A program made the translations under genes and the position numbers. Of a stretch of 64,000 bases of DNA, positions 1 through 55,146 are shown one piece after another. Each line of letters begins with the position of its first letter. The stretch's first letter is position 1. Source of the DNA: an uncultured candidate division Zixibacteria bacterium (lineage in GTDB: Bacteria > Zixibacteria > MSB-5A5 > UBA10806 > 4484-95); the NCBI GenBank assembly GCA_963668625.2, contig CAXXKA010000006.1:192001-256000 (forward strand), in the 5' to 3' direction. Under the pieces are notes generated by a model. The model saw only the letters and a list, made by a program, of their open reading frames with translations, had not been told where the DNA came from and ran no database searches.

Positions 1-428
1 GACGAGATATAATCCATTACCTGGACATCCATGGGGCAAACCTTGGTACAGGCGTTACAGGCCACGCACCTGAATAACTCGGGATACAGGCTGAATATCT
101 CCTCCGGTGCGCCGGTTAGCTTATCGAAATCGTAGGTAGCGCGATTGGCCGGATAGAACGGTAACTGGGTCAAGTACATATCGGGTTCGACAACGGTCTG
201 GCAGGCCAGGCCGGTGTAGATTTTATAATCGCCCGGTTTGCGATAGACGGTACTGCATGCACCACAAACGCCACCTCGACAGCCGCAACCGCGAATATAC
301 TTATAACCCGCGTATTCCATGGCTTTCATGATAGTCAACGTTTCCGGCACTTCGTATTTCTTCCCCATTATGTAGATGGGGATGAGCTTTGCCTCAACGG
401 TTATTTTCGCCTCATCAGAAACGCTCAT
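1..428 (-). CDS. SdhB/FrdB-like 2Fe-2S + 4Fe-4S iron-sulfur protein (partial, runs off window start; absent from ORF track)
   Basis: Manual translation from ATG at 428: MSVSDEAKITVEAKLIPIYIMGKKYEV...GCGCRGGVCGAC...GLACQT...CVACNACTKVCP. GAGG RBS upstream. Confidence 0.8.
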   Translation of the reverse strand, partial: MSVSDEAKITVEAKLIPIYIMGKKYEVPETLTIMKAMEYAGYKYIRGCGCRGGVCGACSTVYRKPGDYKIYTGLACQTVVEPDMYLTQLPFYPANRATYDFDKLTGAPEEIFSLYPELFRCVACNACTKVCPMDVQVMDYIS

Positions 429-469: not shown

Positions 470-1360
470 CTAAGCCGTTACTTCTTTTAAGATATTTTTA
501 TCTTTGAGAATTTCGGTAGCGCTTGGCCTGTTCAGCTCGAGATGCAGGGTGTCTGGGGAGCAGCCTAAGGCCAGCGCCAGTAGTTGCGAGAAATAAAACA
601 CCGGGATATCTTTGGCATCCTCGAATTTCTGCAGCATCATACCCTGACGGCGAGACAGATTGTAATCGCATAAGGGGCAGGTTAACACCATAGCCTCCGC
701 GCCACGGGTCGAGGCATCCTTTAAGATATCGTAGGACACGTTCAGGGCGGCATCGGGATTGCCCAGCACCTGGTAGCTACCGCAGCATTCGGTGGCCATC
801 GAAAAGTCAACCACCTCCGCGCCGAGAGCTTCCATGAATTTATGGAACAACTCGGGATTATCAGGGCTGTCTAAGGCGACATCTTTTGGTCTTAGCAGGG
901 TGCAGCCGTAGTAAGGCGCCACCTTTATGCCGTTAAGCGGATTAGCGACTTTTTCTTTGAGCTTATCGAAACCGTACTCATCACGTATGTAGTCGAGGAA
1001 ATGTATCACCTTGACTTCGCCGAAGTAATCCGGTTCTTCATCCATGAACGAGTTGATAGTGTTTCTTTTCTCCTCGTCGTTTTTCATCAGTTCGTTGGCT
1101 CGAGCCAGCGTATTGTAGCACATCGAGCAAAGAGTGATAACCGTATCGTTACCCTGCTCTTTAACCCTGATCAAATCGCGAACCGGGGCGACGATATGAA
1201 TCAAGTCGTCATCGGCCAGCGAGTAGACGGCGCCGCAACAGTTCCACCGGGGCAGTTCCTCGTATTCGACACCGAGAGTATCTAAAGCCGCCAGCGCGGA
1301 CTTTTCGAGATTTTTGGCTTTCGTTTTTAACGTGCAGCCGGGGTAGTAACTTATTTTCAT
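470..1360 (-). CDS. hdrB: Heterodisulfide reductase subunit B-like CCG-domain protein
   Basis: YYPGC, WNCCG, CSMC, PYYGC, CCG and CPLC motifs. The ATG at 1360 follows GAGGAAAG; the ORF track starts at 1372. Confidence 0.85.
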   Translation of the reverse strand: MKISYYPGCTLKTKAKNLEKSALAALDTLGVEYEELPRWNCCGAVYSLADDDLIHIVAPVRDLIRVKEQGNDTVITLCSMCYNTLARANELMKNDEEKRNTINSFMDEEPDYFGEVKVIHFLDYIRDEYGFDKLKEKVANPLNGIKVAPYYGCTLLRPKDVALDSPDNPELFHKFMEALGAEVVDFSMATECCGSYQVLGNPDAALNVSYDILKDASTRGAEAMVLTCPLCDYNLSRRQGMMLQKFEDAKDIPVFYFSQLLALALGCSPDTLHLELNRPSATEILKDKNILKEVTA

Positions 1361-1368
1361 AGCTTTCC

Positions 1369-1776
1369 TCACGATGTCATTTTACGGAAGGTGGAAACCA
1401 TGGCGATCTGGGGAGTCTCTTTGATATCCTCAGGGTCGAGGCTGGATGGTTCCAATTGGTTGACGTTCCGGCGAAGCTTTATCAAGCGCAAAGCCTCCAT
1501 CACCTTCGGGATATCGATATCCCTCGGACATCTCACCTGGCAGGTATGGCAAGAGGCGCAAACCCAGGGGGTATTGGCCATATCCAGAGCCTCGGACTGT
1601 CCGTATTGTAACATTATCATCACCTGGCGTGGCAGCAACCCGATTTCCTCGTTCATCGGGCATGACCCTGAACATGTTCCGCATTGGAAACATTGACCGA
1701 CATTCTGGCCGCTAATCTCCATCACCTTGAGGCGAAGCTTATTGTTAATGGTTCGCTTTGAGATTTTTAATGCCAT
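1369..1776 (-). CDS. hdrC: Heterodisulfide reductase subunit C-like 2x[4Fe-4S] protein
   Basis: CFQCGTCSGSCP and CASCHTCQVRCP motifs, directly upstream of hdrB. Confidence 0.85.
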   Translation of the reverse strand: MALKISKRTINNKLRLKVMEISGQNVGQCFQCGTCSGSCPMNEEIGLLPRQVMIMLQYGQSEALDMANTPWVCASCHTCQVRCPRDIDIPKVMEALRLIKLRRNVNQLEPSSLDPEDIKETPQIAMVSTFRKMTS

Positions 1777-2151: not shown

Positions 2152-3201
2152 ATGAGATTAACAAAGTTTTTAACGGTAACATTCCTAGCTGTTTTATTAC
2201 CTGTGTCTCTGACTTTCGGGCAAACCGGAACATCCGCTCAGAAACCTGCGGTGGCGAAACAAAAAGCGACTATCGAGGACGCGAGTAAATCGAAAGATAG
2301 AAATCCTGTTATTTCCAGGTCAAAAAAGCAAGAACCTGAACCGGAAATACCACTTTCTGATGCCAGAATCGCGTTTGAGTATTCAAAGTTTGATTTCGGC
2401 ACGGTTCCGAACGGCGCCCAGATGACACATTATTTCCCGGTCACGAACATCGGGCCGGATACTCTGTATATTACAAAAATCAAAGCTGGGTGAGGATGCA
2501 CTACGTCAAAAGCGAGCGGGATAGTTATTCCGCCAGGAGATAGCGCCTTAATAGATGTTTCTTATCGTTCATCTAAATCGACTAAGAATACCAGGCGCAT
2601 AACCAAGCGTATCAGCGTTCACTCGAACGATTCCTCGAATCCTGTGGCCAGCCTGACTATTCAAGCCCAGGCTAATATGTCGGAATCCGTGTTAAAATGG
2701 AATCCTGACAAGGCTGAATTCAATCAGGTACTTATCGGTAAAGGTGATAAGTTCAAACTCGAACTCCAGAACACCGATAGCACCGATATAAGGCTTGAGG
2801 TCGTAAGCGAACCTGATCCGCAAATCGTTAAAAAGTATAAAATAAAGAAAGATAAACTCAAACCCAATCAGACTACCGAGATTGAGTTCGAATTGAGAGA
2901 AGATTTACCTCCGGGAGTTTTCAAAACGACCTTAACCGCCCAGATAGAGGGTAGTGGCTCTAACAGGTTCTCGATACCTATTACCGGCACTGTGGTTGAG
3001 AAAATTAGCCCGGAAAAACCGGTGGCGGCCTCTCACAAAAAACCGCCCGCAAAGAAGAGCAGCAATGTTAAATCAGGCAAAAAATTTGACCCTAATACCG
3101 GCATACAGGTTAAAAAACCGGTCGTTAATGATAGGGCCGAATCGAAACCTGCTACACAAACTATACCGCTCTCCACTATCGACGATTCTGATCTCAAATA
3201 A
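2152..3201 (+). CDS. Secreted DUF1573-like Ig-domain protein, predicted selenoprotein (349 aa, Sec114, U-G-C)
   Basis: Signal peptide. In-frame TGA at 2491-2493 aligns with the Cys of KPGCGCT in the paralog at 3350. The frame stays open through 2644 to TAA at 3201, and a hairpin lies at 2516-2533. Confidence 0.85.
2516..2533 (+). promoter_or_regulatory. Candidate bacterial SECIS upper stem-loop
   Basis: GCGGGATA-GT-TATTCCGC begins 23 nt after the UGA, with the apical G at +31. Confidence 0.7.
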
Positions 3202-3229
3202 TCTTTATCTTAAATTCACGAAATTAGTA

Positions 3230-3253
3230 AACCGGTCTTATGGCCGGTTTTTT
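3230..3253 (+). terminator. Rho-independent terminator
   Basis: AACCGGTC-TTAT-GGCCGGTT followed by a T-run. Confidence 0.65.
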
Positions 3254-3349
3254 GTTATCGGTATTTTCCCGTCATTTTCAGTTTTAGCTCAATTGAGGTT
3301 CATAACATTTCATTAAGTATATTCGATTTTTAACGGAAGGAGTAAAACG

Positions 3350-4267
3350 ATGTACGGACGTATCAATTTCATGATTTGCTTGATTGCTGTGCTGGTTCTA
3401 TCGAGTGGTGTTCAGGTCTCTTTCGGCCAAACAGCGAAAACAAGAACCAAACCCCTCACGAAAACCAAATCCAAAATTGTAACTCAAAAAGATAAATCTA
3501 CCCCGGAGATACCCCCGAATAATTCAACGATCACTTTCGATCATGAGCAGTTCGATTATGGTGTCGTGCCCAGGGGAGAGCAAGTTACGCATCATTTCCC
3601 CGTGAAAAATACCGGTACCGATACATTGACGATTACCCGGATTAAACCCGGATGCGGTTGTACGACCACCCGTAAGAGCAGTATTGTGCTGCCTCCCGGT
3701 GAAAGTTCGCTGATAGATATCACTTATCGATCCTCAAAATCAGCGAGATCGGGGCATAAGGTTACCAAGAGAATTCGCATAGAATCAACCGACTCGCAAA
3801 AACCTACCCTGCAACTTTCGATTTCCGCCCGTACCGACACAGCGGATTGTATGTTAAGATGTCGCCCGGAGATGGTTGATTTGGGCGAGGTTTTAATAGG
3901 TAAGGATGATAAATTCGAGGTTGAAATAACTAACATCGATTCTCTGAAGTCGGAGATTATGGTGGTCAGTGAGCCGACTTCCGAATTCATAAAAAAGTTC
4001 AAGATCAAGAAAGACAAATTAAAATCAGATCAGAAAACGAAAATCGAATTTCAGCTTCAGGATAATATTCCTCCGGGCGAATTCAAAACGGCTCTTACTA
4101 TCGAGGCGAATAACGATTCTAAATCTCGTATCTCCATTCCGATTCATGGCAAAATAGTCGAATCATTTAGCGAAAAGAAAACCAGCAAAGCCGGGCAGGA
4201 GATGTCGTCATCGGCCGTTAGCGGCCACCCTAAAGTATCTACCGTTGACGATTCGGATTTAAAGTAG
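3350..4267 (+). CDS. Secreted DUF1573-like Ig-domain protein, Cys paralog (C102-G-C104)
   Basis: Signal peptide, FDYGVV..HFPVKNTG.D.L.I..IKPGCGCT...LPPGES pattern, second Ig-like domain, AAGGAG RBS. Confidence 0.88.
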   Translation: MYGRINFMICLIAVLVLSSGVQVSFGQTAKTRTKPLTKTKSKIVTQKDKSTPEIPPNNSTITFDHEQFDYGVVPRGEQVTHHFPVKNTGTDTLTITRIKPGCGCTTTRKSSIVLPPGESSLIDITYRSSKSARSGHKVTKRIRIESTDSQKPTLQLSISARTDTADCMLRCRPEMVDLGEVLIGKDDKFEVEITNIDSLKSEIMVVSEPTSEFIKKFKIKKDKLKSDQKTKIEFQLQDNIPPGEFKTALTIEANNDSKSRISIPIHGKIVESFSEKKTSKAGQEMSSSAVSGHPKVSTVDDSDLK

Positions 4268-4415
4268 AGTGATATCGAGAACATACATTTTAAATCCATA
4301 GAACTAGCCGGGTTTTCTTTATTTTTAGCTGTTCACACGACAGTTTTTACATTAAATTCGGTGAAGGAAAACAGGAGGTGGATATCGTTAGTAATCGTTC
4401 GAGGGATAGAGCTAA

Positions 4416-5171
4416 ATGATGAATAAGATTATCCCGGTTTTAAAGTCAATAGTCATGGTGTTTGCGATGGTCGGAGCGTCTATGGCTCAAAACTCCGGTA
4501 ATGAAATTACTGCCAACTCGACGGTTGATGCGGTCATTAATTTCGAACACATGGAATTTGATTTTGGAGCGATACCGCCGGGCGCCGGGGTTGCGCACGA
4601 ATTTTCCGTAAAAAACGAGGGCTCGGACACCCTTGTCATTCATCGAATTAAACCCGGCTGAGGTTGTACGACTTTAGATAAGAGTGCGATAGTTATCGCG
4701 CCGGGCGAAAGTTCTGAGATCGGAATTATTTATAAAGCGCCGAAAACCGACAAATATATTGGCAAGCAAAGAAAAAGGATAACGGTTTATTCCAATGATC
4801 CGGTTAATCCGGTACTTGCTATATATATAGCCTCTTCAGTTAACAGACCTGATATGCCTTTTGCAGTCGAGCCTGCCGAGGTTGATTTCGGCGTGGTGAT
4901 GGCCGGCGAATCTAAAACCCGGACGGTTACGATTGCAAATGTGAGTCAACTGGATTTGAGTCTGTTGGCTATCGATGAACCTGATGATATCTTTATAAGT
5001 GATTATAAGTTACAGTCTGCTGATTTAAAGTCCGGTCAGTCGACAGCATTAAGTATTACTCTTCAAAGTGAACACGTAGTCGAGGAATTCGTTACCTCTA
5101 TTACGCTCGAGACAAGCGGGCAATTCGCCAAACGCTTATCGATTCCGATTCATGGCATGATCGTGAAATAA
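4416..5171 (+). CDS. Secreted DUF1573-like Ig-domain protein, predicted selenoprotein (251 aa, Sec82, U-G-C)
   Basis: IKPG-TGA(4659-4661)-GCTTLDKSAIVIAPGES. The frame is open through 4854 to TAA at 5171, and a hairpin lies at 4684-4701. Confidence 0.85.
4684..4701 (+). promoter_or_regulatory. Candidate bacterial SECIS upper stem-loop
   Basis: GTGCGATA-GT-TATCGCGC begins 23 nt after the UGA with the apical G at +31, and covaries with 2516-2533. Confidence 0.7.
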
Positions 5172-9790: not shown

Positions 9791-11872
<2,082 letters not shown>

Positions 11873-21615: not shown

Positions 21616-22038
21616 TTGCCTGAAATAAAAAAAGCCAGAGTGAAATGGGTCGAGAACATGAAATTCGTCGGAACCGGCCCCAGTGGTAAGTCATTGATTA
21701 TGGATGCCCCCGAAAAATCGGGTGGTGACGGCAGCGCGGTTACGCCGGGCGAGTTAATGCTGATTGGCCTGGGCGGCTGCACCGGCGTGGATGTCGTCAG
21801 TATGTTGAAGAAGATGCGCGTACCGTTAAGGGATTTACAGGTTGAGATCGAGGCCGAGCCCGTAGAGGAGCACCCTAAAATATACAAATGGGTGAAAGTG
21901 ATTTATCGATTTTTCGGGTGTGAAAACGAGGCAAAGGCCGCCAAAGCTGTGGGAATGTCTAAAGAGAAGTATTGCTCCGTTTCGGCTATTCTCGGTAAGT
22001 CCGCCGAGATGAGGCATGAAGTTATTTTCGAAAAATAA
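21616..22038 (+). CDS. OsmC/YhfA family protein
   Basis: PGELML.GLGGCTG.DV and KYCSV motifs, TTG start. Confidence 0.88.
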   Translation: MPEIKKARVKWVENMKFVGTGPSGKSLIMDAPEKSGGDGSAVTPGELMLIGLGGCTGVDVVSMLKKMRVPLRDLQVEIEAEPVEEHPKIYKWVKVIYRFFGCENEAKAAKAVGMSKEKYCSVSAILGKSAEMRHEVIFEK

Positions 22039-24450: not shown

Positions 24451-26246
24451 GTCAGGATATTCACGAGGAAGAGGTATTAGGTAAGGCTTATGACAGCCGT
24501 TTGATGCGGAGGCTTCTATCGTATCTCAAGCCCTATAGATGGCTGGTGGCCGTTAGCGTTACCGTTCTTATCATCTCCTCACTGGCACAGCTCGCCGGGC
24601 CATATATCACTAAGATCGCTATCGACGAGTATATTGTCAAAGGCGATAAGGACGGGCTTTTCAAAATTATCCTGATCTTCCTCGGCACGATCGGTATCGG
24701 ATTCAGTCTTCAGTATTTTCAGGTTTACCTTATGGAGTATGTCGGGCAGCGTGCGATGTATGACCTTCGCATGCAAATATTCTCGCATGTGCAACGGATG
24801 GACCTGAAGTTTTTCGATAAGAACCCGGTTGGCCGTGTATTGACGCGTATCACATCCGACGTTGAAACTCTTCACGAGTTGTTTACCTCCGGCGTGGTTG
24901 CCATATTCGGAGATATATTCACTCTGGCGGGTATCGTTATAGTGATGCTATCGGTTAACTGGAAGATGGCGTTGGTTATATTTTCGGTATTGCCGATTTT
25001 GATCGTTGCTACGATGATATTTCGTAGAAAAGTAAGGCAGTCTTTTAGGGATGTCAGAACCTCGACCGCTAAAATCAATTCGTTTGCCCAGGAGCATATC
25101 TCGGGTATCACCGAGGTGCAAAGCTATATAGCCGAGGAACGAACGAGTTCGGGTTATAATATCATAAACGATGAGCTACGCGGGGCGCATGTCAGAACAG
25201 TGTTTTACTACGCCGTGTTCTATCCGGTTGTCGAGCTTGTCGGAGCCGTATCGCTGGCGTTGATTATCGCCTACGGCGGCGGGCTGGTACTCGAGGGAGC
25301 GTTTACTCTGGGTGCGCTGGTGGCGTTCATTCAATATGCAGACAGGTTTTTCAGACCTATACGCGATCTATCGGAGAAATACAATATTCTGCAATCGGCG
25401 ATGGCCTCCTCCGAGAGAATATTTAACCTGATCGACGGCGAAAGCAGCGTTATCAGTCCGGCTAAAGGCGTCAAATCGGGCAGGGCGGATGGCAAGATAG
25501 AATTCAAAGATTTCCATTTCGAATACGAGAAAGATAATCCCGTTCTCAAGGGGATAAACCTGAAAATCGAGCCGGGCGAAAAGATCGCTATCGTAGGAGC
25601 CACCGGTTCGGGTAAGTCTACCCTGGTATCATTGCTTTGCCGTTTCTACGAATACGAGCGGGGGGATATACTGGTAGATGATATCTCGTTGAAACGATAT
25701 AATGAACAGGAACTTCGTAAAAATATCGCCCTGGTGCTTCAGGATGTTTACCTGTTCTCCGGTGATATAGCTCGCAATATTCGTCTCGATGAAAAAGATA
25801 TTCCGATTGAACGAGTAAAACAGGCGGCCAGGGAAGTAGGCGCCGACAGATTTATCGAGCATTTAAAGGATGGCTACAATTACAAGCTTACCGAACGCGG
25901 CGCCAATCTGTCTGTCGGTCAACGGCAGTTAATCGCGTTCGCGCGCGCATTGGCGTTCGATCCGGCGATTCTGATACTCGATGAGGCGACATCATCTATA
26001 GATACCGAAACGGAGATACTCATACAGAAAGCATTGAAAAGGCTATTAGCCAATCGTACCTCGATAGTGATCGCCCACAGGCTTTCGACTATCAAAGGCG
26101 TCGATAAGATCGTCGTGATGCATAAAGGCGCTATCAGGGAGATGGGGACGCACGAGCAGTTACTGAAGCAGGAGGGTATCTATTACCGCCTCTACCAGTT
26201 ACAGTACAAGGATCAGGAGGTATTAGCAGAAAATGGGCAAGTATGA
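24447..26246 (+). CDS. Heterodimeric ABC exporter subunit (MdlB/YheH-like)
   Basis: TMD plus GATGSGKST, LSVGQRQ, LDEATS and IAHRLS. Confidence 0.9.
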   Translation: MSQDIHEEEVLGKAYDSRLMRRLLSYLKPYRWLVAVSVTVLIISSLAQLAGPYITKIAIDEYIVKGDKDGLFKIILIFLGTIGIGFSLQYFQVYLMEYVGQRAMYDLRMQIFSHVQRMDLKFFDKNPVGRVLTRITSDVETLHELFTSGVVAIFGDIFTLAGIVIVMLSVNWKMALVIFSVLPILIVATMIFRRKVRQSFRDVRTSTAKINSFAQEHISGITEVQSYIAEERTSSGYNIINDELRGAHVRTVFYYAVFYPVVELVGAVSLALIIAYGGGLVLEGAFTLGALVAFIQYADRFFRPIRDLSEKYNILQSAMASSERIFNLIDGESSVISPAKGVKSGRADGKIEFKDFHFEYEKDNPVLKGINLKIEPGEKIAIVGATGSGKSTLVSLLCRFYEYERGDILVDDISLKRYNEQELRKNIALVLQDVYLFSGDIARNIRLDEKDIPIERVKQAAREVGADRFIEHLKDGYNYKLTERGANLSVGQRQLIAFARALAFDPAILILDEATSSIDTETEILIQKALKRLLANRTSIVIAHRLSTIKGVDKIVVMHKGAIREMGTHEQLLKQEGIYYRLYQLQYKDQEVLAENGQV

Positions 26247-27032
26247 TAACAGGCTGGCGACCGCCATCGATGCAGCCAAGGCGGCTGGATCGTATCTATT
26301 AGAGATTTTAAACGATAAACGCGATATCAGTAAAAAGGGCGTAGTCGATATAGTAACCGACGCCGATAAAGGCGCGGAGAAAATCATCCACGAGATAATA
26401 AATATAGAATTTCCCCAGGATCAGTTTTTGCCGAGGAGGGCACCGAGGATAAGGGGATCAGCGGACTCACCTGGATTGTCGATCCCCTGGACGGCACCAC
26501 GAACTATGCCCATCGATTCCCGGTATTTTGCGTATCTATCGGGTTGGTCAAGGATGGCGAGCCGATTTTAGGCGTTATATACAATCCTAATATGGATGAG
26601 CTTTTCACCTCGTACAAAGGCGAGGGCGCATACTTGAATGGTCAGAAAATCAGCGTATCATCGAACGATAAATTGATTGAAAGCTTACTGGCAACCGGTT
26701 TCCCATATGATATCAGGGAATCGGAAAAGGATAACCTCGATAATTTCGCGCTGTTCTATAAACGGGGCGCGCAGGCTGTCAGGCGGGCCGGTTCGGCGGC
26801 GATTGATCTGGCATATACCGCCTGTGGTCGTTTCGATGGTTTCTGGGAGATGAAACTTCATGCCTGGGATATAGCGGCCGGGATACTCCTGGTTGAGGAA
26901 GCCGGTGGTACGGTAACCGATTTCAATGGTGATAGGGTAGACCTTTTCAAAGGAGAGGTGATCGCTTCCAACGGAGTGATTCATTCTCAGATGAAGCAGA
27001 TATTAGAGGATTCTAAAGCGGGCGTGAAATAA
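26233..27032 (+). pseudogene. suhB: Inositol monophosphatase, frameshifted near 26425-26430 (possible sequencing error)
   Basis: Adding one base gives DQF-AEEG...WIVDPLDGTTNYAH, which continues into GSAAIDL and WDIAAG. Confidence 0.85.
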
Positions 27033-44273: not shown

Positions 44274-44906
44274 TTACTTATTAAACGGGAGAAAATCGTA
44301 AATAACCGGCACGAATGCTTTCTCGAAATGATCCAGCGCTTGCAGGCTTTGAGGATTATCCACGGCAACGAAACGCACGAAAGCGACATCCGTGGGGCGC
44401 AGTGTGAGTGAGCTGAGCATGGTGTAGAGCTTGAATTTGTAATCGTTGGCGGTTTCGCCTCGACGAGTTATATACCAGAAATCCATCACCTGCTTGTTTT
44501 CGCCCAACCTGAGATGAAAGCGGCTGCCGTTAATGATATATCCATTGATATTTATTTGCCTCGGCTCAGAACCCAGTATTGCCCATCCTGAACCCGGCAG
44601 GCAATTGCGGGGTGAATGCACACCGCCGGAGGATGCGCCGCCGCGGGCGAAATAGTCGAAAAATAGCTGAACCCGGTTGCCGGCGCTGTTGGCGTAGGTG
44701 GCATTGAAAAAGTGATCAGGATTGAGCATATCCAGAGTAGCCTGCTCGATAACATCCACCCTGCCATTCCAGCCCTGGTACTGTGTCGGGAATTGGTTCA
44801 AGTCCCTGACCTCATGACCGGCGGGTGCGATAAATTTGACAGCGTATGAGAAACCGAAAACAGCTACCAGTACGATAGCTATTCCGATGAATGTTTTCCG
44901 GGCCAT
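44274..44906 (-). CDS. epsI: EpsI family exosortase-associated protein
   Basis: N-terminal TM, FP...W.G and VHSPRNCLPGSGW motifs. Confidence 0.88.
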   Translation of the reverse strand: MARKTFIGIAIVLVAVFGFSYAVKFIAPAGHEVRDLNQFPTQYQGWNGRVDVIEQATLDMLNPDHFFNATYANSAGNRVQLFFDYFARGGASSGGVHSPRNCLPGSGWAILGSEPRQININGYIINGSRFHLRLGENKQVMDFWYITRRGETANDYKFKLYTMLSSLTLRPTDVAFVRFVAVDNPQSLQALDHFEKAFVPVIYDFLPFNK

Positions 44907-45757
44907 TTTAATATCGCTCCTAATATAAACATCATTATCATTGCCGTGAAAAATACTATCATGCCGGAAAGCTCGTGAAGGAAATCCTCGGCGAGTTTGG
45001 TGCTGATAGCGTACGCTCCAACGGCCGTAAACAGCAAGCGGATTATATTGGTAACAATCGCTATCGGGATGGTGGAAGCAAACAGGATAAGCGGCCGAAC
45101 TTTGCCGGGCAGAGTTAGATGACCGTATAACGCTCCCAGTGCCATCAGTGTTGCCAGGCTTCTAAGGCCGCTGCAAGCCTCGGCTACCTCCAGAGTGTAT
45201 TCGGGAAGGTATAAGATATTACCCTGACGAACGCAGGGCACGCCGATTATCCCCAAAAAATAATGAGTGGCTTTGGTGGCAAAGAGCTGCATAGGTAACG
45301 TGCCGGAATGATAGATTATAGCCGGTATCGGTATCATGAAAATCAAGAAGAAAAACGCGAACCAGACTTTCCTGAAATTAGATGCGCCAAGATAGTATAG
45401 CGATAATCCGGTGATAATCAGGACCAGCGCGAAACGGGTCGTAAAATACTCACTGGCAGCCACACCGAATATGAATCCCAGAGAACCGGCAGCTATCATC
45501 AGTAAACCGAATTTGCATACAGGGGCGGGAAATGTAAGCTCGTTGCGTTTGCGATATAGTAGGAATATCGAGATCGGGACAACGAGGAAACCATGCGAGT
45601 AGTTATCGTTGATATACCAATCATATATCAGGTCTTTGAACACCGGCAGATTTAACATTACTATCAAGCCCAGTAGGATATAGTAATACCGGTGGTTTTT
45701 GATATGCGTGGTTATTTCGACTCCCGATATATTCATAGCATCTCCTAAAGAATACAA
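44879..45757 (-). CDS. Exosortase (EpsH family)
   Basis: YSHG, VAEACSGLRS (Cys), NIIR (Arg) and FLHE (His) motifs. Confidence 0.93.
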   Translation of the reverse strand: MYSLGDAMNISGVEITTHIKNHRYYYILLGLIVMLNLPVFKDLIYDWYINDNYSHGFLVVPISIFLLYRKRNELTFPAPVCKFGLLMIAAGSLGFIFGVAASEYFTTRFALVLIITGLSLYYLGASNFRKVWFAFFFLIFMIPIPAIIYHSGTLPMQLFATKATHYFLGIIGVPCVRQGNILYLPEYTLEVAEACSGLRSLATLMALGALYGHLTLPGKVRPLILFASTIPIAIVTNIIRLLFTAVGAYAISTKLAEDFLHELSGMIVFFTAMIMMFILGAILKWPGKHSSE

Positions 45758-53851: not shown

Positions 53852-55146
53852 ATTAGTGTAAATTCAATTGTGTAAATTTGTATTTATTGATGTATTAAAG
53901 AATTACGGGTATATCCAGCAGAAAACGCTAATCTTCAAGGAGGATATACCCGTGAAACCACTTAGGTTTGCTGATGAAAATGTAGGTTATGTATTTGCCG
54001 GAGTCAAGAGTTATTGGGAGGAGGATGTTCGGGGTGTGGTGTTGAAGCATGCTCGCCGTCATTTGGAACGGATGTTGAATGTTGAGTTTAGGATAGCGGT
54101 TGGCTGCGGAAAGTATGAGCGGAGTGAGGAGCGGGCGGATTATCGGAATGGTTATTACCGTCGGGGTTTGCTGAGTTTATACGGCTGGTTAGAGGAGGTA
54201 AAGGTTCCCCGGCTGCGTTATGGCAGCTTTGAGTCGAGTGTCTTGCGGAAGCACAAACGGCGTTCGCAGCTATTGGATCGGCTGATTTTAGAGGGCTTTC
54301 TGCTTGGTCATTCTACCCGCAAGACAGCACGGATGTTCAAGCGGGCCTATGGTGAAAGCATCAGCGCCCAGGCTGTCTCGAACGTAGTTAAGGCATTAAA
54401 CGATGAGGTTGGCAGCTTCCACTGTCGGGCTTTGGGCGATGATTATCGTTTTATTCATCTGGATGGTTTATGGGTGAAGATAACCTCTCCGGTTAAGGTG
54501 AAGAAGGTGTTGCTTGTGGCCTACGGTGTCCGTCACGATGGCAGCCGTGAGCTTATCGACTTCATGCTGGCTGGCTCTGAGAGCGAGGCCTACTGGTGGG
54601 GCTTTCTGTCGGATCTCAAGCAGCGAGGTCTGCGCGGTCATTTGTTGGAGGTTGTTGTTCACGATGGTGGTAAGGGGCTGATTAAAGCTCTGGCCGGGTT
54701 ATATCCGCGGGTGAAATCACAGCAATGTGTCTTCCACAAGCTGTCGAATATCAGCCAGAATCTGGATGAACGTAAAAACCGCAGCCGAATCACCAGGGAT
54801 GCTGCTGCGGTCTATCAGGCCGAGACGGAGAAAGAGTTGAAGGCACGATTGAAAGCTTTCAAGGCCAAATGGCGATTGAAAGAACCTAAAGCTGTTCGAT
54901 CATTTATTCGCGGCTTTGATCGAACACTGATTTATCGAGAATATGCTGAACCTGAAAGAACTCAAATAAAGACCAATAATCCTCTGGAGCGATATCTGGA
55001 GGAATTGCAAAGGAGGATAAAACCGTTCAGGAAATTTGTTAATGCCAAAAGTGTTGATCGAATCGTTTATGGAATAGTCGCTTATGTGCTGGATAACCGA
55101 AAATCTGAAAATCATTACAAATTTACACAATTCCCTTGATAAGATC
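53852..55146 (+). mobile_element. IS256-family insertion sequence
   Basis: 17-bp perfect subterminal IR AATTGTGTAAATTTGTA (53866-53882 / 55116-55132). 8-bp target duplication ATCCCCAG (53844-53851 / 55147-55154). Confidence 0.92.
53952..55139 (+). CDS. IS256 (Mutator-type DDE) transposase
   Basis: YRNGY, HLDG, HDG, QQCVFH and TNNPLER motifs. GTG start after AGGAGG. Confidence 0.93.
   Translation: MKPLRFADENVGYVFAGVKSYWEEDVRGVVLKHARRHLERMLNVEFRIAVGCGKYERSEERADYRNGYYRRGLLSLYGWLEEVKVPRLRYGSFESSVLRKHKRRSQLLDRLILEGFLLGHSTRKTARMFKRAYGESISAQAVSNVVKALNDEVGSFHCRALGDDYRFIHLDGLWVKITSPVKVKKVLLVAYGVRHDGSRELIDFMLAGSESEAYWWGFLSDLKQRGLRGHLLEVVVHDGGKGLIKALAGLYPRVKSQQCVFHKLSNISQNLDERKNRSRITRDAAAVYQAETEKELKARLKAFKAKWRLKEPKAVRSFIRGFDRTLIYREYAEPERTQIKTNNPLERYLEELQRRIKPFRKFVNAKSVDRIVYGIVAYVLDNRKSENHYKFTQFP

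Follow-up and report, generated by a model that had tools for sequence, protein, structure and literature searches.

Two in-frame UGA codons in a DUF1573 gene trio of a Zixibacteria contig are followed by hairpins that probably act as selenocysteine insertion elements

Here, we analyzed a stretch of 64,000 nucleotides (nt) from the genome assembly of an uncultured candidate division Zixibacteria bacterium (GCA_963668625.2, contig CAXXKA010000006.1, positions 192,001 to 256,000; referred to as the window), in which three genes of the DUF1573 type lie in tandem and two of them, genes A and C, contain an in-frame TGA codon. Behind each of these codons the transcript can fold into a short hairpin, and we consider it probable (roughly 0.7) that the two hairpins are the selenocysteine insertion sequence (SECIS) elements of A and C, as members of a selenoprotein family already known, and conform to the standard bacterial model. 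An initial annotation of the window had already proposed SECIS-like hairpins behind two selenocysteine (Sec) codons, and this proposal is supported by the agreement of the hairpins with the published model, by the alignment of both UGAs with cysteine (Cys) in homologs and by the listing of DUF1573 proteins with a 'UGC' motif as a selenoprotein family.

Along the forward strand, the trio is arranged with Cys gene B between the two Sec genes (Table 1). Beyond the TGA, the reading frame stays intact for 235 codons in gene A and for 169 codons in gene C without any other defect, and the read-through products of both genes start with a hydrophobic, signal-peptide-like N-terminus. The proteins are of the DUF1573/HYDIN-like immunoglobulin (Ig)-domain type, and a single Pfam DUF1573 match (PF07610) spans the TGA in each of them (residues 73–172 in A and 41–132 in C), with scores of 83.4 bits for A, 94.8 bits for C and 86.3 bits for B at a gathering cut-off of 26.1. 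In the protein alignment, the UGA column is occupied by Cys in paralog B and in 9/9 full-length homologs, the local motif being G-U-G-C-T-T in A and C and G-C-G-C-T-T in B and all nine homologs. Gene callers cut both genes at the UGA, gene A into P0163 and P0162 and gene C into P0037 and P0024 (fragments of 81 and 105 amino acids (aa)). Stop codon usage in 46 open reading frames (ORFs) of the window (TAA 21, TGA 13, TAG 11) points to the standard genetic code, since TGA terminates 13 of them; a reassigned code was therefore ruled out. As a separate observation, an acidic C-terminal tail is kept in A (...STIDDSDLK, 3172–3198) and B (...STVDDSDLK, 4238–4264), two homologs on other contigs (P0004 and P0164) end in ...SIDDSDIR and ...STIDDSDFR, and gene C has no such tail; it may represent a sorting or recognition signal.

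The family itself has a record in the selenoprotein literature. A 'DUF1573 domain-containing protein' (PF07610, motif UGC) is tabulated among the prokaryotic selenoproteins in two reviews (PMC9312934, PMC13188914), whose tables credit Zhang and Gladyshev 2007 (PMC1976440). That study describes an OS_HP2 family with two selenoproteins from the Olavius algarvensis symbiont metagenome; its Figure 5 legend announces SECIS drawings for five families, with OS_HP2 not included, and no published SECIS element of this family was found in the literature passages covered. The NCBIfam name together with the order of the review tables suggests that OS_HP2 and the DUF1573 entry are the same family. Against the NCBIfam model NF041425, 'OS_HP2 family (seleno)protein', the three paralogs reached 73.3 (A), 76.9 (C) and 82.4 bits (B) with E-values from 1e-20 to 1e-23, below the cut-off of 100. 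On sequence grounds, A, B and C are thus to be placed as OS_HP2 relatives outside the curated NF041425 subfamily. Besides the trio, the window encodes an OsmC-family protein (21616–22038), which scores 30 bits against NF041052, the OsmC-related (seleno)protein model (cut-off 95), and which is full length without an in-frame TGA, i.e., a Cys form.

The sequences and positions of the two hairpins, as given in the initial annotation, proved to be exact: GCGGGATAGTTATTCCGC lies at 2516–2533 in gene A and GTGCGATAGTTATCGCGC at 4684–4701 in gene C. The common register could likewise be reproduced, the first stem base being the 23rd nt past the TGA and the loop G lying at +31 in both genes. Here, the gap-free alignment of the A and C proteins (37% identity over 214 residues) has to be taken into account, which by itself explains the identical spacing. 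The fold had to be corrected: a stem of 8 base pairs (bp) closed by a loop of 2 nt, as originally drawn, is sterically impossible, and RNAfold instead yields 7 bp with an AGUU tetraloop. The bare hairpins have folding energies of -7.7 (A) and -7.9 kcal/mol (C), and in a 31-nt context each reaches -8.9 kcal/mol. Hairpin 1 of gene A forms with a mean pair probability of 0.86–0.96 over four contexts. As initially described, all three differences between the hairpins preserve pairing, namely C-G to U-G, a two-sided change of G-C to C-G, and G-U to G-C. The codons under the helix are aGC-GGG-ATA-GTT-ATT-CCG-Cca in A and aGT-GCG-ATA-GTT-ATC-GCG-Ccg in C, so that the two-sided pair change links two replacements, Gly by Ala and Pro by Ala.

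To date, the model of the bacterial SECIS element that goes back to the bSECISearch program of Zhang and Gladyshev is summarised in a review (PMC13188914), where the Figure 2 legend gives four constraints: a loop of 3–9 nt on a stem of 4–16 bp, a distance of 16–37 nt from the UGA to the loop, a minimum free energy (MFE) of at most -7.5 kcal/mol, and at least one G at loop position 1 or 2, with G or U as the usual next base. Both hairpins agree with all four, having 7 bp, an AGUU loop, 29 nt between UGA and loop, energies of -7.7 and -7.9 kcal/mol, and G followed by U from the second loop position on (A-G-U-U). A lineage-specific SECIS with a long spacer had originally been proposed; as 29 nt fall inside the ordinary range, no new class of SECIS element is needed. 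When the 70-nt stretches of A and C were folded together using RNAalifold, the main shared structure was this helix, in which one pair differs on both sides and two pairs on one side; this two-sequence comparison revealed neither a conserved lower stem nor any other shared helix 16–37 nt from the UGA. A second shared helix (columns 52–69, starting 51 nt past the UGA) was rejected as a SECIS candidate, having its loop about 55 nt off, outside 16–37 nt, and being weak in A. In gene C, this second helix takes the form of a stable hairpin at 4710–4727, in which 7 bp enclose an AGAU loop.

Hairpins of this kind are rare in the coding background, which consisted of 46 non-overlapping ORFs, chosen from 62 ORFs of at least 130 aa in the window after dropping 16 that overlap a longer one. 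Here, a model hairpin follows 406/17049 in-frame codons (2.4%), 3/154 Cys codons and 1/13 true TGA stops. With a rule demanding at least 7 bp and a G in the first two loop positions, the counts were 885/17279 codons (5.1%), 6/158 Cys codons, 44/948 out-of-frame TGAs and 1/13 TGA stops. On both strands of the window, 51/2235 TGA triplets are followed by a model hairpin, and only five of these are flanked on either side by 40 or more open codons. The DUF1573 sites make up two of the five; the remaining three are on the strand opposite to annotated genes and were discarded, leaving no further selenoprotein candidate defined by TGA and model hairpin within the window.

In addition, we resampled synonymous codons according to the codon usage of the window in 20000 trials. 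The exact hairpin arose in 2.8% (A) and 2.3% (C) of the trials. Both genes simultaneously produced a hairpin of 7 bp or more in 0.07% when the same register was demanded, and in 0.3% when any such hairpin was counted. At identical degenerate residues, identical codons are used at 28/79 positions between A and C, 38/106 between A and B and 36/87 between B and C. Synonymous sites are thus saturated between the paralogs, and A and C represent nearly independent draws. Two arguments of the initial annotation are not supported by such controls. The 'invariant core' GATAGTTAT occurs twice in the window compared to 0.72 occurrences expected, a count of two being reached by 17/100 shuffles; this 9-mer reflects two consecutive identical codons, and 35% of the codons at identical residues (the 28/79 above) match anyway. 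Similarly, the 'true covariation' comes down to one compensatory pair in two sequences, and as soon as paralog B joins the alignment, 61/500 shuffles match the observed percentage paired and 41/500 the observed covariation score.

Paralog B serves as an internal Cys control. At the register of the A/C helix, 4/7 pairs can form in gene B compared to 14/14 in A and C. Three columns off this register, gene B folds a 6-bp hairpin of its own, with pair probabilities of 0.66–0.99 and resampling p-values of 0.065 and 0.19; its UUG loop has the G in third place and none in the first two positions, and it therefore falls outside the SECIS model. It may be what is left of a SECIS element in decay, or the same coding stretch may produce it by chance. 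Regarding more distant Cys homologs, a contig profile search, with the Sec column set to X to avoid a bias towards TGY, retrieved four distant loci (Melainabacteria and Ferruginibacter), all of them with Cys. Seven matches to the motif pattern were found at these loci, five of them in DUF1573 reading frames and all with Cys; a model hairpin was present at 0/5 of these Cys sites, and at one match a CAACC loop is closed by a 7-bp stem, with a spacing of 36. A tblastn search against plasmids gave five distant records of the Bacteroidota type with 28–36% identity, too remote to be used as controls. The initial annotation had named a hairpin equally common among Cys homologs as the result that would speak against its proposal. 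In part, the answer is in favor of the proposal, as gene B lacks the hairpin in register, departs from the model and is joined by five distant sites without a model hairpin; in part it is not, given the 6-bp hairpin three columns away.

Relatives of the trio on other contigs point to the same arrangement. A search of shorter proteins recovered the N-terminal fragments P0165, P0168 and P0169, which are 53–73% identical and come from other contigs, and the C-terminal pieces P0164, P0166 and P0167. All three non-self N-terminal fragments stop at ...LYITKIKAG, directly before the Sec position, and judging from these sequences the stop is presumably a TGA in each case. For each of P0165, P0164 and P0004 (a Cys protein resembling B), the reported source is one contig of 6187 bp, which suggests that the same Sec-Cys tandem is present elsewhere. 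An exhaustive protein search returned mostly giant multi-domain proteins among its top 150 matches, and its sole gain was the two fragments of gene C itself. A phylogeny of 21 proteins places A, B and C together with Cys forms in a clade of eight (support 98/99); within it, B forms a group with P0004 and P0041 (100/98), A is sister to this group (84/85) and C has a long branch. As full-length Sec homologs are hidden by gene calling, the tree leaves undecided whether Sec is ancestral and was replaced by Cys or was gained twice; the shared register and loop favor a common origin of the A and C hairpins. Besides that, the C-terminal DUF1573 fragment P0167 and the LigA protein P0175 (71% identical to the LigA of the window) both come from contigs of which the longest measures 24927 bp, which hints at a conserved linkage between the DUF1573 cluster and ligA. 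For the LigA of the window itself, the named proteins among the 120 matches listed, seven in number, are all from Zixibacteria, with up to 69% identity, and on this basis, too, the window probably belongs to this candidate phylum.

If the hairpins are SECIS elements, the first Cys of the C-G-C motif of the family would be replaced by Sec in A and C, giving U-G-C. SelB would bind the hairpin and bring in Sec-tRNA(Sec), which would take the place of release factor 2 at the UGA, with selA, selB, selC and selD presumably located elsewhere in the genome. The hairpin would probably go back to an ancestor with Sec that A and C have in common, and in paralog B it may have been lost or shifted after the change of TGA to TGC.

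Several results weigh against this interpretation, and a number of them fit an alternative in which the selenoprotein genes are real, SelB reads another or a non-consensus structure, and the hairpin is a by-product of the conserved coding stretch Ser-x-Ile-Val-Ile-x-Pro. Only two sequences have the hairpin, and both pass the threshold of -7.5 kcal/mol by a narrow margin. Hairpin 2 of gene C has a mean pair probability of 0.59–0.91, with about 0.6 in three of four contexts, and in its 70-nt context the MFE structure is a competing fold. Significance within single genes is weak: in gene A, resampling gave p=0.25 for the local MFE and p=0.13 for the stem, and in gene C p=0.025 for both. Dinucleotide shuffling resulted in z-scores of -1.9 and -0.9 for the 31-mers and of -0.67 (A) and -1.10 (C) for the 70-mers, and the three-sequence covariation, as described above, does not rise above its shuffle control. 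The stable hairpin of Cys paralog B at nearly the same place shows that folding here is not exclusive to TGA genes; with the pairing partner slid by -3, 76% of the cells are paired. Furthermore, the background set was hand-picked and the hairpin counts take contiguous stems only. The genomic context adds to these points: selA, selB, selD, other domains of the Sec machinery and tRNA-Sec are all missing from the 64-kb window, where an Rfam scan returned a tRNA only, and no other selenoprotein gene was found in it. Bacterial SECIS elements outside the consensus model do exist (PMC13188914), which further accommodates the by-product explanation. Nevertheless, we regard it as rather unlikely. A hairpin in the same register in both genes was produced by so few resamplings despite saturated synonymous sites, and Ile-Val-Ile is not kept in the wider family, where TVI, III, DRV, TLL and others occur, so that the sequence does not simply follow from the protein motif. 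In addition, A and C share no other helix in the required range that SelB could use, the next one beginning 51 nt past the UGA, and the hairpin of gene B lacks the loop G of the model.

Two further explanations dispense with Sec. The TGAs could be decoded by near-cognate read-through or by local recoding to Trp, Cys or Gly, with the hairpin acting as a general stimulator of read-through or pausing. Hairpins downstream of a stop codon can indeed stimulate read-through in other systems, and the lack of tRNA-Sec, selA, selB and selD in the window would fit such a scenario. It is very improbable, as the UGA takes the place of a Cys in a CxC motif of the redox type, the family is listed among the selenoproteins, TGA serves as terminator in 13/46 ORFs, and both the G-U in the loop and the spacing of the hairpin agree with the SECIS model. 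Finally, the TGAs could be real stops, arising from pseudogenes, sequencing errors or split genes, and the hairpins would be meaningless. This would be in line with the splitting of both genes by the gene callers and with another window gene, of the inositol-monophosphatase family, that appears frameshifted. Such a coincidence is the most far-fetched of all: two independent paralogs have the TGA at the same Cys column, have no other defect and remain open for 235 and 169 codons further, one domain match runs across each TGA, and three other contigs stop at the same residue.

Within the SECIS interpretation, a more specific reading can be considered, in which the AGUU tetraloop on a 7-bp stem, 29 nt past the UGA, is the preferred SelB target of this lineage and was kept since the duplication of A and C by coupled replacements. 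The replacements at issue are Gly-GGG...Pro-CCG in A versus Ala-GCG...Ala-GCG in C. We treat this reading as doubtful. If it was true, RNA structure would have influenced which amino acids make up a beta-strand, and the hairpin would offer a lineage-tuned probe for an undescribed selenoproteome, including exported U-G-C selenoproteins with an Ig fold.

The genomic neighborhood of the trio is included in Table 1. The three iron-sulfur (Fe-S) protein genes upstream are divergent from gene A, and the two ORFs that directly follow the trio had no Pfam match and no meaningful NCBIfam match. In the inositol-monophosphatase-family gene, the frame switches near a T5 run at about 26424–26428, which reflects either an assembly error or a pseudogene. 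The exosortase gene and its partner indicate a PEP-CTERM-type sorting system.

Table 1 Features of the DUF1573 trio and of other regions of the window
Feature	Position	Strand	Basis or remark
Gene A, exported DUF1573/OS_HP2-like selenoprotein, 349 aa with TGA = Sec (U114)	2152–3201	+	read-through translation open to 3201
TGA of gene A, read as Sec	2491–2493	+	aligned to Cys in paralog B and 9/9 full-length homologs
Candidate SECIS hairpin 1 (gene A)	2516–2533	+	RNAfold; stems 2516–2522/2527–2533, loop AGUU 2523–2526
Gene B, Cys paralog, 305 aa, internal control	3350–4267	+	DUF1573 match; TGC at 3653–3655
Hairpin of gene B, 6 bp, UUG loop	3678–3692	+	fold; three columns off the A/C register
Gene C, exported DUF1573/OS_HP2-like selenoprotein, 251 aa with TGA = Sec (U82)	4416–5171	+	read-through translation
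TGA of gene C, read as Sec	4659–4661	+	alignment with Cys column and read-through translation
Candidate SECIS hairpin 2 (gene C)	4684–4701	+	RNAfold; stems 4684–4690/4695–4701, loop AGUU 4691–4694
Partial TfrB/SdhB-like Fe-S ORF	3–428	-	divergent from gene A
HdrB-like Fe-S protein (CCG domains)	470–1372	-	divergent from gene A
HdrC/QmoC-like Fe-S protein	1369–1776	-	divergent from gene A
ORF of 558 aa	5274–6950		directly after the trio
ORF of 219 aa	7291–7950		directly after the trio
LigA	9791–11842	-	
Inositol-monophosphatase-family gene, apparently frameshifted	26227–27032		N-terminal part in frame of 26227–26571, rest in frame of 26370–27032
Exosortase (EpsH) and DUF3485 (EpsI-like) partner	44274–45757	-	
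Mutator-family (IS256-like) transposase gene	53868–55139		

The chief value of these results is one of annotation, as reading the UGAs as Sec restores two complete exported DUF1573 proteins, and the same splitting by gene callers seems to occur in at least three other contigs. They would also add Sec use to a poorly studied candidate phylum: a literature search retrieved no description of Sec use in Zixibacteria, and a paper containing both terms mentions the phylum only as a genome bin. The tandem of Sec, Cys and Sec paralogs offers a natural comparison for the fate of a SECIS element after the replacement of Sec by Cys. The knowledge of Sec decoding as such is left unchanged; the finding is real but ordinary, DUF1573 'UGC' selenoproteins being known since 2007 as OS_HP2.

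With respect to known systems, A and C resemble the OS_HP2/DUF1573 'UGC' selenoproteins in their PF07610 domain, the U-G-C motif, Sec in place of the first Cys and the abundance of Cys homologs. In contrast to OS_HP2, the proteins of the window have a second Ig-like domain, A and B carry a long C-terminal tail, and the likely host belongs to the Zixibacteria instead of being a deltaproteobacterium. With the bacterial SECIS consensus, the hairpins share the stem-loop located within the coding region just 3' of the UGA, and they show no feature that the model excludes. The SECIS element of Escherichia coli fdhF has about 11 nt between the UGA and the minimal hairpin, a bulged U17 and a GGUC loop, of which G23 and U24 are contacted by SelB. 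Like this element, the hairpins of the window follow the UGA and present an exposed G-U dinucleotide in the apical loop of a short stem rich in GC. They differ from fdhF in the spacer to the stem base (22 nt instead of about 11 nt), in the position of the loop G (34th instead of 23rd nt, counted from the U of the UGA), in the uninterrupted 7-bp stem without a bulged U, and in the loop itself, which is AGUU in place of GGUC.

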